Source: a virus
Reading direction: 5' to 3' (one strand)
Length of the DNA stretch: 14,415 nt
UHGV virus genome: UHGV-0068976
Below, in pieces: positions 27 through 9,539 of this stretch (the first letter of the stretch is position 1; every line of letters begins with the position of its first letter). The notes under the pieces are model-generated. The model was not told the DNA's origin. It saw nothing but the letters and a program-made list of their open reading frames with translations, and searched no databases. The position numbers and the translations under genes are program-made.

Positions 27-1322
27 TTAATAACCATCCGATCCCACAGCGTGGGGCATGGATGGGGCAAACTCACTCAATTTCTGGTTGAGGATGAGTA
101 CCTGGTCCTGGCTATTTTCAGCCATCCAGGATCCGTACACCCGGTAAACCATTTGCGCGTCGGTGTGACCCATTTGCTTCGCGATGAAGTTCGGGTTGGC
201 ACCGGCAGCTAATGACCAGCATGCATACGTGTGTCGGGACTGGTATGCTCTGCGATAGCGAATCCCGGCGCGTCGCATTGCCGCCTCCCATGACTGGTTA
301 ATCGACCCCACAGCGTAATGATGCCCGGCACGGCCATTACGTGTAACGATCTGCGGGTTGAACACGAACGTGCACGGATGCACATCAGTGCGACCATACT
401 CGCGTAGTTTCACCTCAACCTGATACTGCTTACCCAGACGCGTTAATTCAGCCTGACTTTTCAGCACGTCGACCGCTGGTTGAATCAGGTTAATGACACG
501 GTCCGTCCCGGCCTCTGTTTTCGGAAGGGTGAACTCCTTCGTTAACGTGTGGTTCCGGCGGATCATCATCGTACCGGCTTTCAGGTCGATATCTTCCCAC
601 GCCAGCGAAACCAGTTCGCCGTGTCGCACACCGGTGTACACCGCCAGCGACCACATGTTTTTCAGCTGCTGAGTAGAACAGGCGTTTACCATTCTCACGA
701 ACTCCTCGCGCGTCAGCGGATCGGGTTCGCAACGGGAACGCTTCAGAAGGGCGATCCCCGCAAATGGGTTCGTCCGGACATAGCCGCTGTCGAAGGCGAA
801 CTTAAACATCCCATTCATCGTCTTCATATAGTTGTTGACCGTTCTGACGGAGCGGCCCTTAACCGGTGTTTTCTGTCCTGTCTTCAGGGTGTGATAACCG
901 GTCAGCAATTCCTTCCTGATAAACAGCATGTCTTCCTGCGTCACAGCAGAAACAAGCCTGTCCCCGCCAATCCTCGGCACCATATTGCGCGCTATAGATG
1001 CATAGCGCGACATTGCGTTGGTGCTGATCTCCATGCGTTTCAACTCAAGCCATTTATTCGCCAGATCCAGAACGGTGATTTCCTTACTCTCCACCCCAAA
1101 TCTTCGCAGGTTCGGTGAGTCCGGGAACTGGGCGGCATAGTTGAAGTTTCCGGTCTTTATCGAAAAGCACACCGACGCGCGCAGTTCGCCAGCGACCTTT
1201 CTGTTTTTTGGTGTATCCGGTACGCCGAGGCTTTCACGCACCCGGATACCTTTATAGATGAACCATACACGCAGCGTGCCGCCGTGGTTCTCCACGCCTG
1301 TTGGGTATGCTGACTTAGCCAT
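27..1322 (-). CDS. int: Phage integrase, tyrosine recombinase family
   Basis: 431-aa ORF. Start ATG at 1320-1322 is preceded by a strong SD (GGAGG). C-terminal half carries tyrosine-recombinase catalytic-type residues (GVRHGEL, QSRHTYACW, VYRVYGSW). Sits at the end of the leftward operon immediately downstream of an excisionase-like gene, the usual int-xis arrangement. Confidence 0.9.
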   Translation of the reverse strand: MAKSAYPTGVENHGGTLRVWFIYKGIRVRESLGVPDTPKNRKVAGELRASVCFSIKTGNFNYAAQFPDSPNLRRFGVESKEITVLDLANKWLELKRMEISTNAMSRYASIARNMVPRIGGDRLVSAVTQEDMLFIRKELLTGYHTLKTGQKTPVKGRSVRTVNNYMKTMNGMFKFAFDSGYVRTNPFAGIALLKRSRCEPDPLTREEFVRMVNACSTQQLKNMWSLAVYTGVRHGELVSLAWEDIDLKAGTMMIRRNHTLTKEFTLPKTEAGTDRVINLIQPAVDVLKSQAELTRLGKQYQVEVKLREYGRTDVHPCTFVFNPQIVTRNGRAGHHYAVGSINQSWEAAMRRAGIRYRRAYQSRHTYACWSLAAGANPNFIAKQMGHTDAQMVYRVYGSWMAENSQDQVLILNQKLSEFAPSMPHAVGSDGY

Positions 1323-1367
1323 TATTCCCTCCTGACGTCCAAGAGCACGCTAAGCATAAACGGATCT

Positions 1368-1613
1368 TCATTGGCGCGCACCTGGCTGTTTCTTTTTGAG
1401 GCTTTCAACCCACTGATCGACAGCCTTACGGTTATACATGCATTCGCTAGACGGCTTTGGGTTTCCATCTGGTGCAACGTGAAGGTATTCTCTCCCGACC
1501 ATCCATGACTTTCTGCGCGCCGCCTCAATGGTTCCTGGGCGGAGGCCAGTAATCTCTATCAGTTTTTGCTCAGTCACCCAGTCATTGGGAACGATTAAAT
1601 TAATTTCGCTCAT
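1368..1613 (-). CDS. xis: Excisionase-like protein (small DNA-binding Xis)
   Basis: 81-aa product beginning MSEINLIVPNDWVTEQKLIEITGLRPGTIEAARRK, which resembles the excisionase family of lambdoid prophages. Start ATG at 1611-1613 has SD GGAGA upstream. Lies directly upstream of int on the same strand. A longer form starting at 1643 (10 extra residues) is possible. Confidence 0.7.
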   Translation of the reverse strand: MSEINLIVPNDWVTEQKLIEITGLRPGTIEAARRKSWMVGREYLHVAPDGNPKPSSECMYNRKAVDQWVESLKKKQPGARQ

Positions 1614-1642
1614 GGTTATCTCCAGGCAAAAAGAAACCGCCA

Positions 1643-1810
1643 TCAGGCGGCTTGGTGTTCTTTCAGTTCTTCAATTCGAATATTGGTTACGTCTGCATGT
1701 GCTATCTGCGCCCACAGCATCCAGTGGTCATAGCAGTCGCTGATGTTCTCGGCTTCGATAACTCTGTTGAATGGTTCTCCATTCCATTCACCTGTAACTC
1801 GGAAGTGCAT
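1643..1810 (-). CDS. Hypothetical small protein (55 aa)
   Basis: Open frame translated by hand (MHFRVTGEWNGEPFNRVIEAENISDCYDHWMLWAQIAHADVTNIRIEELKEHQAA). Its stop overlaps an in-frame-shifted ATG at 1641-1643 as TGATG. No convincing SD; below the ORF-track length cutoff. Confidence 0.3.
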   Translation of the reverse strand: MHFRVTGEWNGEPFNRVIEAENISDCYDHWMLWAQIAHADVTNIRIEELKEHQAA

Positions 1811-1830
1811 TTATCATCGCCATAAAACAA

Positions 1831-1878
1831 AACTCGCCGTAGCGAGTTCAGATAAAAGAAATCCCCGCGAGTGCGAGG
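1831..1878 (-). terminator. Two tandem hairpins with U-rich tails downstream of the 1899..2180 gene (candidate intrinsic terminators)
   Basis: On the minus strand: CCUCGC-ACUC-GCGGGG (one G.U pair) followed by AUUUCUUUUAU, then AACUCGC-UACG-GCGAGUU followed by UUGUUUUAU. Both lie just 3' of the Cys-rich orphan gene. Confidence 0.35.
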
Positions 1879-1898
1879 ATAGTTACTTGTTCATATTA

Positions 1899-2180
1899 TT
1901 AATCGTCAATGTATTTTGAGCATTGTGGGCAATCATCGATCCCACAATACGATTCATATGCATCCTTTATTGCGTCGCGGGCTTCAGTAAGAGTATTGAA
2001 TAAGTTGCAGCTATTATCTTTTTGATATAGGTAAGTTCCTAATTTATAAGCAGAAGAAGCATCATTTCCGCTGTCTAAAATTACATCGTTATGGATTCTG
2101 CACCTTGCAAGAACTCCTGATCCCATAAGGGTCTGCATAGCCCATTGCTCTTGATCTTCACACAAATCATGAATGCTCAT
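1899..2180 (-). CDS. Hypothetical Cys-rich small protein (93 aa), orphan moron-like gene
   Basis: ORF with likely start MSIHDL at 2178-2180 preceded by GAGAGGTG. Local sequence is markedly AT-rich by eye compared with flanking phage genes. Has its own downstream hairpins and a TATAAT-containing AT-rich upstream region (2200-2294). C-terminus has CGIDDCPQC (C-x4-C-x2-C). Confidence 0.55.
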   Translation of the reverse strand: MSIHDLCEDQEQWAMQTLMGSGVLARCRIHNDVILDSGNDASSAYKLGTYLYQKDNSCNLFNTLTEARDAIKDAYESYCGIDDCPQCSKYIDD

Positions 2181-2294
2181 TTCAACACCTCTCTTCACGT
2201 TTCACACACGTTAAGATTAACAGTGTTTTTACATGCTTTGGAAGATTTATTTTATAAAAACTCTTTTAATACAAATAGATATAATAGTTCACTA

Positions 2295-3017
2295 TTATAG
2301 CTCCTTTAATCGAGGCGGTTCTGGTAGAGGCATCCAGTGGGTTACACCGCCAATTGGCTCATCGTCGTCGTACTCCAATGCGGCTATATAGAACCCGTCA
2401 CGACGAGAATAAGAAATCCCGGACATTACAATGCCATCCGAAACAACAATAATGTCACCCGTTTCTTTCGGCATTCGCTCACTACAGCTTATCCAACCAT
2501 CCGGAGTTACCGGAGAGTTGCCATTTACATCGAAGTTTGGCTCTGCGTCCTGAACCAGGAGGATGTAACCATTCTTGGCAGTATCAAGTTCCGACGCCTC
2601 GGTGACGGTGCCGAAATAGCGATTACCTAAATCAGCATCACAAGTACTTACATCAATGGAAACTTCCATGCCTTCGATTAATTCTGGCAAGTTGTAAGCT
2701 TGGCTTACAGGTTCGGCTTCCAGTTCTGCAATGCGCTTTTTTGCTGCTTCCAGTTCATCCAGTAATTCCAGCACGGTAGCTGGATTGGCTGCGGCGATGA
2801 ATTCAGCATTGGCCTGCTGTTCCATTTGGAAATCTTCATCGAAGCCGCTTTCTGGATGCGCTCCTTCAATTCTGCAAATGGGAATATATCCAGCAATTTC
2901 ACGATGAATTAGCGCATCATCACAATCAAATCGGCTCTCTCCATATTCGAGCGACCACACCCCACACGTTGCTTTTTCTGCCTTAGCACGCAGTGCCTGA
3001 TAGTCAATTTCGCTCAC
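2295..3017 (-). CDS. Ea22-like protein with C-terminal DUF551-like domain
   Basis: Long ORF. Most plausible start is GTG at 3015-3017, 6 nt after a consensus SD (AAGGAGG), giving [16 protein letters not shown]. Central coiled-coil-like [20 protein letters not shown]-terminal [11 protein letters not shown]...[10 protein letters not shown] resembles DUF551 as recalled. The ORF track's upstream GTG at 3038 is the alternative start. Confidence 0.75.
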
Positions 3018-3199
3018 TGTTTGCCTCCTTTGCGCCACATCGCATTCAGATATTTGTTTTGATTCACTGATGGAAAAGAATTTCTCTTAAGCAATTCCTC
3101 TCTCGATGGCATTGGCTTTACGCGTTGGCGAATAATCATTTCTGCCGGAAGAATGCCGGGATTGTATGCAAGTCCTCTCATGGTAAATTCCTCAGTCAT
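3014..3199 (-). CDS. Hypothetical small protein (61 aa)
   Basis: ATG at 3197-3199 overlaps the stop of the upstream 97-aa gene; its own stop overlaps the GTG start of the Ea22-like gene (GTGA). The chain of couplings is the main support; no recognised motif. Confidence 0.4.
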
Positions 3200-3485
3200 T
3201 ACTGATAGCGCCATAGCGTGATCGATAATTACGCAGGCGCGGGTCAATTTCAGGGAAGTGGGTATATGTGGCTTTGCGGAACGGTCGGATTGATGTCTGG
3301 TAAATTCGCTCGCGTTCTTCTTTCTCTGCAAGCCATATACAATGACGAAATTCCTTTTCCTCTTTCGTTTCCTGCGGTAGCGACATTATCAGGTCATAGT
3401 TTTTTCTGAATTTATCCAGCACCTCCGATACGGAATTGCCGGAACAGCGGCGCGGGTCATCCGCACCATACATAGGCGCTGGCAT
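3192..3485 (-). CDS. Hypothetical protein (97 aa)
   Basis: ORF with ATG at 3483-3485 preceded by SD AGGAGA at about 5 nt. Located directly downstream of the exonuclease gene in the same operon. No motif recognised. Confidence 0.6.
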
Positions 3486-3501: not shown

Positions 3502-4050
3502 TTATTTAGCTAATTTTTTCCAGATTGCTGAAACGTATTTGGCTTGGTGGATGGCATCATCAAGCGCGTTGTGGCGAGTTCCTTTGAATGGCATATCTCG
3601 CTTAGGGTCGAATCCTATTACCTTTCCAAGCTCGACGATTGTTCTTACGTCGCGGTCATTCCACCACTGCCACGGAACTGGCCACCCTGTCAGCGAATAA
3701 CTGTTTCGGAGAATAACGCAGTCAAATGATGCTCCATTCCCCCAAACCTGAACGAATTTGTGGTTAGCGTTCTTTATGATGAATTCAGATAACCATGAAA
3801 GAGCCGTTGAAAGCTCCTGAGCGTTGCTGGTTAGCGATTTTCTGGCTTCTTCACTCTGTTCCAGCCACCATAAAATCGTTGAAGCGTCAGGACGCGCCCG
3901 ATATCGCATTGATGACTCAAGCGAGATATTTACCGAGAACTCTTCTCCTGTTTCTCCGGTATTCGGGTCAAAGAATACCGCCCCAATAGAAATAACTGGC
4001 GCGTATGGCCCGTTGCCCATTGTTTCAAGGTCAACCATCAAGTGATTCAT
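3502..4050 (-). CDS. DnaQ-like (DEDDh) 3'-5' exonuclease
   Basis: 182-aa ORF. Exo I-type motif MVDLETMG near the N-terminus and H-x4-D Exo III-type motif (HNALDDAIH) near the C-terminus. Start ATG 8 nt after the ssb stop with AAGGA in between. Confidence 0.8.
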   Translation of the reverse strand: MNHLMVDLETMGNGPYAPVISIGAVFFDPNTGETGEEFSVNISLESSMRYRARPDASTILWWLEQSEEARKSLTSNAQELSTALSWLSEFIIKNANHKFVQVWGNGASFDCVILRNSYSLTGWPVPWQWWNDRDVRTIVELGKVIGFDPKRDMPFKGTRHNALDDAIHQAKYVSAIWKKLAK

Positions 4051-4058
4051 GTAAGTCC

Positions 4059-4565
4059 TTAAATTGCGTGAATAGCGTGACGAGGGAAGGGGAGAGTTAC
4101 TGGTGCAAAGGGTATATCGTCGTCAAAATCCATCGGAGGTTCGTTGTGTTGTGCTGGTGATGATTGCTGCTGTGGCTTCTGTGATTGCCTGCTGGCTGCT
4201 TGTTGTTTGCTGTCGCCAATGCCGCCAAGCATCTGCATCACGCCATTAATTCCGACATGAACCTCGGTTGTGTAACGGTCTTGCCCTGACTGGTCTTTCC
4301 ACTTTCTGGTTCTCAGCATTCCCTCGAAATAAATCTGATCACCTTTTTTCACATACTGCCCCACGACCTCAGCCAGTTTCCCGGATACAGCAACACGATG
4401 CCATTCAGTCAATTCCTTTTGCTCGCCAGTATTTTTATCTCGCCATTGTTCTGACGTGGCTATTGTCAGGTTAGCGAACGCTGTTCCTGATGGTGAGTAT
4501 CGAACTTCCGGGTCTTGTCCTACCCGACCAAGGATAATCACCTTATTTACGCCTCTGCTTGCCAT
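4059..4565 (-). CDS. ssb: Single-stranded DNA-binding protein (SSB) with extended C-terminus
   Basis: N-terminal OB-fold region is a close match to bacterial SSB as recalled ([44 protein letters not shown]...), followed by a Q/P/S-rich linker and the acidic tip MDFDDDIPF. The frame continues 15 more codons ([15 protein letters not shown]) to TAA at 4059-4061. ATG at 4563-4565 directly abuts the upstream gene's TAA. Confidence 0.92.
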
Positions 4566-6552: not shown

Positions 6553-6825
6553 TTACCTCGCTGTCAGTTGTTTTGATTTCCGGTATCCTGCCGCGTAAAG
6601 AGCTACGTTTGGCAGGCAAATACTTCCACTGCGTTCATCTTCTTCCTTACAGCGAAGGCTTCCGAGTGATGCTGCTTTATCTGCTCTGACGCAACCAGAG
6701 AGCTTTAGCGCAATTTTTCGCGCCAGTGCTTCATTACTGCGTCGCTCGGCAATAAGTTCTGCTCTGCGAGCTTTGTAGCGGCTTTTTGCCGTACCTTTGG
6801 ATTCTTTCCAGACAATGGTTACCAT
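6553..6825 (-). CDS. N: N-like transcription antitermination protein (P22 gp24-like)
   Basis: 90-aa product from ATG at 6823-6825 with SD AAGGAGA. N-terminal arginine-rich motif (GTAKSRYKARRAELIAERR) and C-terminal LPNVALYAAGYRKSKQLTAR, which closely resembles the C-terminus of the P22 N-like protein as recalled. Lies directly downstream of a boxA/boxB nut site and the pL/OL region. Confidence 0.8.
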   Translation of the reverse strand: MVTIVWKESKGTAKSRYKARRAELIAERRSNEALARKIALKLSGCVRADKAASLGSLRCKEEDERSGSICLPNVALYAAGYRKSKQLTAR

Positions 6826-6935
6826 GATGGTCTCCTTTAAGTGGCTTTGGCGCATGACGCGTCGAGGTGCTTATCTTCTCGATCGCTGTCTTGCAGCTGC
6901 AATTCGCGCCATCCCCAAAACCACTCAAGTTCTGG

Positions 6936-7302: not shown

Positions 7303-7327
7303 TAAAAAACCCGGCTCGGTGGCCGGG
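7303..7327 (-). terminator. Intrinsic terminator downstream of the two-gene cassette
   Basis: Minus-strand RNA: CCCGGC-CACCGA-GCCGGG followed by UUUUUUAUU (plus-strand stem 7310-7327, A-run 7303-7309). Lies 8 nt past the stop of the 310-aa gene. Confidence 0.7.
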
Positions 7328-7334
7328 TGAGATA

Positions 7335-8267
7335 TTAAAGAACCGATTTAACAAGATGGTTTTTACGGTACAGACCTATGCGATCATTGTGAATCTCAGT
7401 AGTCTCCACTAAAAGAGAAACAATCTGTCCGACCTTGTGTTTTTTTTGTATTAAATCTAGCATTTCAATCGGATAGGAAGCCTTTAAATGTTCACCACCA
7501 ACATCAAGCTCCAGCTTCCCATATTTGGATAGAACGACCAGTTCGCCTGTAACCGTTTCAGTAATGGGAGGGGATGAAATGGTTGATGTAAGTCTACTCA
7601 CCAAGTACTTAATTTTATTGGAGTCAATAGTTGCCACCTTGGTGCCATTACTAAATGGACCGGTCCAACTTGCATCAAATGTTAAGTTGTGTTTATCGCA
7701 TTCCTCTACGATTCTCTTAAGGCTTACAGTGGAATTGTATCCAATTTCAGCGACGTGATTCATGAAGTTGTTGTCGTCATCGCTTAACAACAAATCGAAT
7801 ATGCCTTTTACAGCCTTGCTGGGTACTGTTTCTACTAATTCTGCTATTCCTGTAGAGAAGGTGACGCCCAATTTTGTAGACCCAGGGGATAAATCAGCCA
7901 GCCTGAGGTTTAAGGAGCTTTTCACGTCGTAGGGAACTTTTTTTGAGTCCTTGCCTGAGGCAATTTTGTGTGTTGCTCTTTGTATTAGCGCTGCAAGATT
8001 TGTTGAAATAGCCCCAAGCAGCTCTAAAGGAATAGAGCCAAAGTCAACCTCAGAGCCTTTCAGCCGCAGCTCAAAAAAATCGATAAGTGGGTGCCGACTA
8101 TCTTGCTTTAATTTTTCGGCCTTCAAATCGCTCAGATGAGAATCCATGGAGCGATAAAGAAGCATGTCAGCAAAGGACCTGGTTTTGTTTTGCTTCATTG
8201 CATCGACTTCTTTTTGAATGAAATCAATGCGTTTATCGCAATTTTTAAACATTGATTTATCATTCAT
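7335..8267 (-). CDS. Hypothetical 310-aa protein, second gene of the accessory cassette in the cI-pL interval
   Basis: Long ORF in AT-rich DNA. ATG at 8265-8267 overlaps the upstream gene's TGA (ATGA coupling) with SD GAGGA 7 nt upstream. No recognisable catalytic motif by eye. Followed by a strong terminator. Confidence 0.8.
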   Translation of the reverse strand: MNDKSMFKNCDKRIDFIQKEVDAMKQNKTRSFADMLLYRSMDSHLSDLKAEKLKQDSRHPLIDFFELRLKGSEVDFGSIPLELLGAISTNLAALIQRATHKIASGKDSKKVPYDVKSSLNLRLADLSPGSTKLGVTFSTGIAELVETVPSKAVKGIFDLLLSDDDNNFMNHVAEIGYNSTVSLKRIVEECDKHNLTFDASWTGPFSNGTKVATIDSNKIKYLVSRLTSTISSPPITETVTGELVVLSKYGKLELDVGGEHLKASYPIEMLDLIQKKHKVGQIVSLLVETTEIHNDRIGLYRKNHLVKSVL

Positions 8268-8743
8268 AAAAAAATCCTCACTAACCCTTTCGGGTTTTCA
8301 CTGCGATCAAAACCAAACCAACCGCGCCAGTAGCTACGCCAGTACTCATAATCATAGTTAGGGTCATCTAAATTCTTCATGAGTAGTAGGACATCAATTT
8401 TGTAGTTTTGTTTGATGTAGTTTCGGTCAAGCAAATTATCGACGCGGCCCCGAAGCATGACAGGTATTGAGTTTATATTGCTATAGTCACATACCAACAA
8501 AATATCAATATCATCAGGCTCTGGTTTAGACGTGGTGTATGAACCATCAACCCATATTTCTGTAAAACAGCCATATTGAGCAGATAATTCTCGAATAGAT
8601 TCGAGTAGCTGTATAAAATTACAGTATAGCATGCCTCGCCTGGATGATGAAGGAAAGCAATCGACACAATACGATTTTAATCCAGCTTCATCCATGTCAT
8701 GGAACCCTGGCTCAAACAGGGGTGGGTAATTAATTTTATCCAT
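8264..8743 (-). CDS. Minimal nucleotidyltransferase-fold protein (Pol-beta superfamily-like), first gene of the accessory cassette
   Basis: 159-aa ORF with AAGG SD. Contains GS-x9-D-x-D (VDGSYTTSKPEPDDIDILLV), the signature arrangement of Pol-beta-type/minimal nucleotidyltransferases, with a further acidic residue on a hydrophobic stretch (KIDVLLLM). AT-rich codon usage. Confidence 0.8.
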   Translation of the reverse strand: MDKINYPPLFEPGFHDMDEAGLKSYCVDCFPSSSRRGMLYCNFIQLLESIRELSAQYGCFTEIWVDGSYTTSKPEPDDIDILLVCDYSNINSIPVMLRGRVDNLLDRNYIKQNYKIDVLLLMKNLDDPNYDYEYWRSYWRGWFGFDRSENPKGLVRIFL

Positions 8744-8891: not shown

Positions 8892-9539
8892 TCACCCAAA
8901 CGTCTCTTCAGGCCACTGCGCCTTAACTACCTTGCCTATGATGCGGCAGCTATGGTCGCAATCCAGGGTTCTATATGCCGGGTTTAAAGGTACCAGGTAA
9001 CTAACCCCTGCATCCTTCTCATACTTCTTGAACGTTGCCTCTGAATCACCATTTGCAGAAGCCACGCAGAAATCCCCAGACTCTACCGGCTCAGCCGGAT
9101 CAACGAGTATCAGCATGCCTTCCGGAAAACTTGGACGAACCCCCTGAGGCGCCGTCATTGAATGCCCCTTCACCTCAAGCCAGAAAGCTTTTTCGCTGGC
9201 TTTTGTGGTCGTTGGGACCCATGCCTTTGCATCGCTGGCTGTGTAGCTTCCCACCTCCGAAAATGGCCCGGCCTGCACTGAAGAAAATAACGGGTATTCA
9301 TATTGGCGAAATACGGCGTCTGAATCCTCGCCAAACATTATTTTTGCCGGAGATACGCCGAGTGCCGCCCCAAGAACCAGCGCGTCATCCGCGCTAACCT
9401 TTCTTGTTCCTAACTCGTAGTTCCCCAGGCGTGAAGGCGCAGCCCAGCCGCAAAGCTTGGCCAATTGAGCCTGGCTAAGTCCTTTAGCTTCTCTAAGGGA
9501 CTTGATCCTTTCCCCGATAATTTCATGCATCGTTTTCAT
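8892..9539 (-). CDS. cI: CI-like phage repressor (N-terminal HTH, C-terminal LexA/S24-type autopeptidase)
   Basis: 215-aa ORF divergent from a cro-like gene across an operator-bearing intergenic region. N-terminal HTH segment ([24 protein letters not shown]), candidate Ala-Gly cleavage site (VQAGP), and serine/lysine dyad motifs (GHSM; FKKY) typical of S24 self-cleaving repressors. Confidence 0.9.

Follow-up and report, generated by a model that had tools for sequence, protein, structure and literature searches.

The best described relative of the gene considered here is ea8.5 of phage lambda. It is transcribed with the exo-xis region, which was attributed to pL, and its mRNA is less abundant than that of the upstream genes (PMC4195576). 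Multicopy ea8.5 was found to repress paQ and, slightly, pI, with a negligible effect on pE (Los 2008, as cited in PMC7093339), and its effect was stated to be the strongest among the exo-xis genes (PMC10789677). The gene was non-essential in a CRISPRi screen (PMC10695390). Yeast two-hybrid partners of lambda Ea8.5 are Int, Q, Ren, Stf, Tfa and the host protein MinE; Ea8.5 was flagged as promiscuous and these partners are of low reliability (PMC3224144, PMC8614690). Three hairpins in the lambda region, t3, t4 and t5, are predicted terminators (PMC4195576, Table 4).

Structures are also available. PDB 2M7A, released in 2013, is the NMR structure of ORF ECO111_1119 of EPEC O111:H- str. 11128, described as "similar to bacteriophage lambda ea8.5". 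It is one of two structures in Kwan et al. 2013 (Biochemistry 52:3612, as cited in PMC8614690 and PMC7093339), whose title describes a hybrid homeodomain/zinc-finger fold and thereby implies zinc binding by Ea8.5 proteins. A second family structure, PDB 2M7B, is that of PP_3909 from P. putida KT2440. Searching the literature by the locus tags ECO111_1119 and PP_3909 gave nothing useful.

Identity of the 93-amino-acid protein

We studied a stretch of 14,415 nucleotides from virus genome UHGV-0068976 (the window), in which positions 1811-2294 had been predicted to hold an orphan gene of unknown function. Judged by sequence, the ORF at 1899..2180 is the prophage counterpart of lambda ea8.5, as the allele of ECO111_1119 of EPEC O111:H- 11128. 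The ORF and its start region are as follows.

1899..2180, minus strand: Ea8.5-family coding sequence, 93 amino acids, ATG at 2180 (ORF list and family matches)
2188..2191, minus strand: Shine-Dalgarno sequence GAGG, 7 nt before the ATG; the minus strand at 2215..2170 reads ...GAAGAGAGGTGTTGAAATG

As originally predicted, the ORF is real. In addition to the GAGG before its ATG, M1 is nearly invariant across the family alignment, and the RefSeq/PGAP annotation has the same 93-amino-acid form, under the NCBI name "Ea8.5 family phage-derived protein". In the ORF list, a GTG in the same frame at 2198 is an alternative start that adds six residues, and this 99-amino-acid form is the one used for PDB 2M7A.

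The protein matches Pfam family PF20735 (Lambda_ea8_5, bacteriophage lambda ea8.5-related domain) with 58.4 bits (E 1.1e-15), where the gathering cutoff is 27 bits, and the match spans profile positions 1-90 of 90. It also matches phrog_6325 (E 7e-57). No NCBIfam model matches it, despite the family name given by PGAP. A word-indexed protein search returned only near-identical sequences; the family itself was reached by an exhaustive HMMER search, which gave 89 clusters, each with a representative, at 50 % identity.

The GTG-started form is 100 % identical to 2M7A chain A over all 99 residues; only the surrounding prophage differs, being a different mosaic here. The protein is mostly helical. 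By model comparison, its fold is that of 2M7A and agrees with the hybrid three-helix (homeodomain-like)/zinc-finger fold of the family, and the structures that it matches outside the family are helical bundles of a generic kind. 2M7B, from a Pseudomonas prophage, shares the family, the fold and four aligned ligand positions, although its identity is only about 20 %.

Lambda Ea8.5 (lambdap36, NP_040611) is likewise 93 amino acids long, is 41 % identical and has the same C-x2-H…C-x2-C pattern. Both genes lie on the pL strand between ea22 and orf55/xis and are followed by the t3/t4 hairpins. In contrast, identity in the coding DNA is no more than about 55 %, and a further difference is the DUF551 domain at the end of the upstream gene here. 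The published functional data concern this 41 %-identical lambda protein, mostly in multicopy overexpression.

The protein is therefore no orphan: it belongs to a curated family, sits at the position of lambda ea8.5 and has an identical solved structure. Gene, family, position and structure of the exact protein were all public from 2013 on, so that the finding is real but ordinary. For the set of phages compared in PMC8614690, Ea8.5 was termed "exclusive to lambda"; as seen from the present allele, prophages of pathogenic E. coli commonly carry it too. The family is small and acidic, and it is found widely in lambdoid prophages, also in those of pathogenic E. coli strains (O121, O103, O111).

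The AT-richness that had been noted is confirmed. The ORF has 38.7 % GC and the spacer at 2181-2294 has 27.2 %, versus 48.0 % in the Ea22-like gene and 47.6 % in orf55. Lambda ea8.5 has exactly the same GC content, 38.7 %, between flanks near 48 %, and a family member with 34 % identity, encoded in the nin region of a different prophage (see below), has 42 % between flanks of 47-52 %. Low GC is therefore a trait of the Ea8.5 family. According to the original prediction, assignment to a known conserved lambdoid early-left gene of normal composition would refute it. Half of this applies: the assignment holds, whereas the GC content is low but equal to that of lambda ea8.5.

Position in the early-left operon

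The genes that place the ORF in a lambdoid prophage are listed below.

27-1322, minus strand: int
1368-1643, minus strand: xis, DUF1233 type
1643..1810, minus strand: orf55 homologue (lambdap35), 55 amino acids; phrog_676, E 5.5e-40; about 96 % DNA identity to lambda
2295..3038, minus strand: upstream gene with an Ead/Ea22-like N-terminal part and a DUF551 C-terminal part (Pfam PF13935, PF04448)
6553-6855, minus strand: N-like antiterminator (PF25694)
8892-9539: cI-like repressor

The lambda gene order is kept: Ea22-like gene, ea8.5, two hairpins, orf55, a hairpin, xis and int. The original prediction placed the gene between the Ea22-like gene and xis and omitted the orf55 homologue that lies between it and xis. 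Further upstream, the minus strand encodes an Abc2 anti-RecBCD protein, an exonuclease, SSB, a Rad52-like recombinase, cIII and the N-like antiterminator, and cro-like and cII genes diverge from the cI-like repressor. Every gene from N down to int is on the minus strand, so that ea8.5, between the Ea22-like gene and orf55/xis/int, is co-oriented with the N-antiterminated leftward operon.

Given this upstream gene order and strand, the Ea8.5 gene lies at the far end of an early-left operon of the usual N-antiterminated kind. The order runs from the cI-like repressor through the N-like gene, cIII, the recombination genes, Abc2 and Ea22/DUF551 to ea8.5, t3, t4, orf55, t5, xis and int. From this anatomy and the example of lambda, ea8.5 is most likely a non-essential accessory gene at the far end of the pL operon, and it would be transcribed from pL as a delayed-early gene by N-modified RNA polymerase.

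The downstream hairpins

Three hairpins follow the ORF.

1851..1880, minus strand: terminator-like hairpin 1 (lambda t3); stem 1880..1861, then UUCUUUUAUC (terminator scan, fold)
1820..1849, minus strand: terminator-like hairpin 2 (lambda t4); stem 1849..1830 with a UACG loop, then UGUUUUAUGG (terminator scan, fold)
1624..1653, minus strand: third hairpin (lambda t5), between orf55 and xis; conserved in lambda (terminator scan)

The two terminator-like hairpins downstream of the ORF had been predicted, and our analysis supports them. Each stem is followed by a U-tract on the coding strand, and the 90-nt stretch containing the pair folds with -24.7 kcal/mol (z = -2.9), a value equalled by 1 of 200 shuffles. 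The same scan finds the same three hairpins in lambda, and the third is annotated as a rho-independent terminator in phage HK140.

These signals probably do not belong to the gene, however. In the part that extends from hairpin 1 across orf55 to hairpin 3 (window about 1885 to 1623), the DNA is about 96 % identical to lambda, which creates a sharp mosaic junction with the roughly 55 % identical ea8.5 coding DNA and the unalignable spacer. Among 5,426 complete E. coli genomes, 2,260 match part of 1811-2294, and 92 hold at least 80 % of it. The remaining genomes, about 2,170, match only query positions 1 to 70 or 80, i.e., the hairpin block, and have other cargo upstream of it, often a gene with an ASCH domain. 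Given the identity to lambda and the many genomes with other cargo, we conclude that the hairpins most likely mark a shared lambdoid module boundary and are not owned by the gene.

By analogy to lambda, t3 and t4 would stop unmodified polymerase before orf55-xis-int, while N-modified polymerase would pass them. Full-text literature searches with the name tL3 returned only synthetic "TL3S…" terminators and mentions of CRIM vectors, with no coordinates. For this reason, we do not equate t3/t4 with tL3.

The upstream spacer and its palindrome

Upstream of the ORF lie a spacer and, at its far end, an inverted repeat.

2181..2294, minus strand: AT-rich spacer, 114 bp, 27 % GC, a constant companion of the allele
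2277..2302, both strands: palindrome (inverted repeat) with perfect 9-bp arms TATAATAGT / ACTATTATA (2280-2299) and a 2-bp spacer, TC

The spacer was 114 bp long in all ten independent contexts that we compared. In lambda, by contrast, the spacer is 191 bp long, cannot be aligned and lacks the 20-bp palindrome. We considered a structured leader RNA in the spacer, but rejected it because the fold is no better than that of shuffled sequences (z = -1.4). An Rfam scan of 1300-3200 gave only a sub-threshold miRNA match, which we attribute to chance.

A perfect TATAAT on the coding strand had been reported at about 2263-2268. The hexamer exists, but about 30 bp away, at 2299..2294, where it shares bases with the upstream gene's stop codon (2295-2297). 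It also occurs on the plus strand at 2280-2285, and this presence on both strands follows from the hexamer being a palindrome arm. TATAAT occurs 4 times in the whole window, versus 5.6 times expected by chance, and we do not regard the hexamer as significant. A consensus scan, which can miss weak or activator-dependent promoters, found no site of at least 9/12 upstream of the Ea8.5 gene. The best candidate combines TATAAT with 2/6 positions of a -35 element, for a total of 8/12, and has no TGn (extended -10). Promoter-like sites in the window are fewer than in shuffles. With no consensus promoter, and with terminators that belong to the shared t3-t4-orf55-t5 module, the proposal that the gene has its own signals largely fails.

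The palindrome itself is unlikely to have arisen by chance (P about 0.004, 5000 Markov simulations). It is 20 bp long, its arms can be extended to 12 nt, and it covers the stop codon of the DUF551 gene. An exact copy is present in all 11 loci with the allele. It is also found in 51 IMG/VR contigs; 50 of them contain the ORF (98.6-100 % identity), and one is cut at the contig end. The palindrome is thus strictly linked to the Ea8.5 allele, and it might be an operator, an RNA hairpin or a recombination joint. Given a perfect -10 hexamer and a non-random palindrome upstream of the gene, there could be some expression independent of pL.

Mobility of the block and the moron question

The DNA shared between prophages with this allele extends, by BLAST, from about 1813 to 2337/2345 of the window. 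It includes the 114-bp spacer, the palindrome and the last ~15 codons of the 2295..3038 gene. In all ten independent contexts, DUF551 forms the end of the upstream gene, at an unchanged position, whereas the N-terminal part of this gene can be Ead/Ea22, a dATP/dGTP pyrophosphohydrolase or neither (loci L004-L013). The downstream gene also varies (orf55 or a gene for 99 amino acids), as does the int/xis type. Phages HK022, HK140 and Kapi1 carry other genes in the ea8.5 slot. In the isolated phages of the collection searched, tblastn found only the lambda-type allele (41 % identity), and the present allele is therefore known only from prophages.

Another lambdoid prophage has a family member with 34 % identity (P0012) in its nin region, where the gene lies between the replication genes and a Q-like antiterminator (4001-4279 in loci L015-L017 and 2154-2432 in L018). 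Neither a promoter nor a terminator flanks it. Given this location, the Ea8.5 family is not tied to the exo-xis slot.

Lambda bor and lom are examples of lambdoid morons. Morons in HK97 and HK022 were reportedly described by Juhala et al. in 2000. The original prediction classified our gene as a moron on the basis of its composition, and part of this classification holds. Like lambdoid morons, the gene is an accessory gene in a variable slot, present at it in 92 E. coli genomes versus about 2,170 with other cargo, and its GC content and that of its spacer are below those of the neighbouring genes, with terminators downstream. Unlike them, it has no recognisable promoter of its own, its terminators are a shared flanking module, and it is co-oriented within an early operon instead of being a late-region insertion.

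If the gene were a true moron, the palindrome, leader and ORF would form a unit with its own weak sigma-70 promoter (-10 at 2299..2294), giving a monocistronic message in lysogens that ends at t3/t4 and confers some benefit on the host. The perfect coding-strand TATAAT, the low GC and the two good terminators all fit this idea, as do the other cargo found in the slot in most lambdoid prophages and the movement of the block as a unit (about 1813 to 2337) between prophages that differ in the upstream N-terminus and int/xis type. However, the missing -35 element (best match 2/6), the lack of an extended -10 and the scan results argue against such a promoter, and the hexamer occurs at chance frequency and is a by-product of the palindrome. 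Moreover, the terminators come with the conserved downstream module and not with the cassette, lambda ea8.5 has equal GC and is a pL-operon gene, and the nin-region relative lacks both signals. We therefore regard the moron idea as a minority reading, and an unlikely one.

Zinc site, acidity and possible function

In an alignment of 73 full-length family members, which are representatives of the 50 %-identity clusters, the only invariant columns are C27, H30, C84 and C87, and all four residues are present in the protein studied here. The cysteine cluster CGIDDCPQC noted in the original prediction is there as well, and comprises C79, C84 and C87. However, C79 corresponds to a gap in 46 of the 73 homologues and is a cysteine in only 5, and C7 and C58 are also not conserved. 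Hence, the notion of a small metal-binding protein agrees with the four invariant ligands, but the proposed C-x4-C-x2-C set does not.

The zinc site is likely C27-x2-H30 … C84-x2-C87, an assignment based on conservation and not on published coordinates. One zinc ion very probably holds the protein together through these residues, in which case the site would tie the N-terminal hairpin to the C-terminal helix; the present copy would presumably be occupied by zinc as well.

With a pI of 4.3 and a net charge of -9, the protein lacks the basic DNA-contacting surface expected of homeodomain or HTH proteins. The family as a whole is acidic (median pI 4.7), with 70 of 72 members below pI 6 and 1 of 72 above pI 7, and few basic positions are conserved in it. 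Acidity across the family speaks for binding to protein and against DNA binding of the classical homeodomain type. Thus, the protein most likely acts on another protein, which might be a phage or host regulator, and not on DNA. It would mildly shift the balance between lysis and lysogeny, as reported for overexpressed lambda ea8.5, and would be dispensable for growth. Together with the four invariant ligands, the acidity favours a protein-binding role and narrows the range of worthwhile experiments. We are confident in the combined explanation: the ea8.5 gene of a lambdoid prophage, expressed as part of the pL operon and encoding an acidic, zinc-held protein that acts by binding protein.

The protein could more specifically be an inhibitor used in host takeover or anti-defence, in which a small acidic zinc protein blocks a DNA-binding or nuclease protein of the host, like other small acidic proteins of early accessory regions in phages. 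The strong acidity of the family is consistent with such a role, as is the location among early accessory genes, near Abc2 and the recombination genes, with a relative in the nin accessory region. Its patchy occurrence, the diversity of its alleles (89 clusters at 50 % identity) and the non-essentiality in the laboratory also fit. However, this evidence is circumstantial and the idea overlaps with the general protein-binding explanation. Ea8.5 has no PADLOC match, and a literature search gave no link to defence. We consider this role doubtful.

An independently regulated cassette is conceivable as well, but rather improbable. It would consist of the palindrome as an operator, the AT-rich leader and the ORF, and the acidic zinc protein, made independently of the pL programme (for example in lysogens or under stress), would inhibit a specific host DNA-binding protein or defence nuclease. 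If true, the Ea8.5 family would at last have a biochemical function.

It is very unlikely that the protein is a sequence-specific transcription factor whose homeodomain-like three-helix unit and zinc finger bind DNA. The fold description in the title of Kwan et al. 2013, the reduced paQ activity under lambda ea8.5 overexpression and the non-random palindrome that constantly accompanies the gene could be explained in this way. In that case, the palindrome at 2280-2299 might be the binding site, with autoregulation or direct repression of cII-dependent promoters as the outcome. However, the charge of the protein and of its family is unlike that of homeodomains and HMG boxes, few basic positions are conserved, the structural matches beyond the family are generic bundles, and the palindrome is missing from the lambda spacer.

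Finally, AT-rich DNA often holds short ORFs, but a spurious ORF is ruled out almost completely by the Pfam and PHROG matches, the solved structure of the identical polypeptide, a Cys/His pattern that is invariant over 73 diverged homologues, the good ribosome-binding site ahead of the ATG and the presence of the exact protein in 9,886 indexed blocks of an assembly collection.

Other observations on the prophage

Among complete E. coli genomes in RefSeq, none contains 80 % or more of the window, the best covering 68 % at 98.5 % identity. The combination of int/xis (DUF1233 type), early-left region and immunity region is a mosaic that we did not find as such in this collection.

GenBank entry MW057783.1, "Campylobacter phage CJLB-4" (48,361 bp), contains a lambda-type Ea8.5 at lambda-like coordinates. 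By appearance, this is a lambda genome that bears the name of a Campylobacter phage.

Two minus-strand genes occupy the place of lambda rexAB, immediately downstream of the cI-like repressor: a DUF6932 gene (159 amino acids, 8264-8743) and a gene for 310 amino acids (7335-8267). The pair matches the PADLOC candidate defence pair PDC-M63A (E 1.8e-41) and PDC-M63B (E 7.5e-45), and a strong hairpin terminator (7328..7309) follows the gene pair at 7335-8743.
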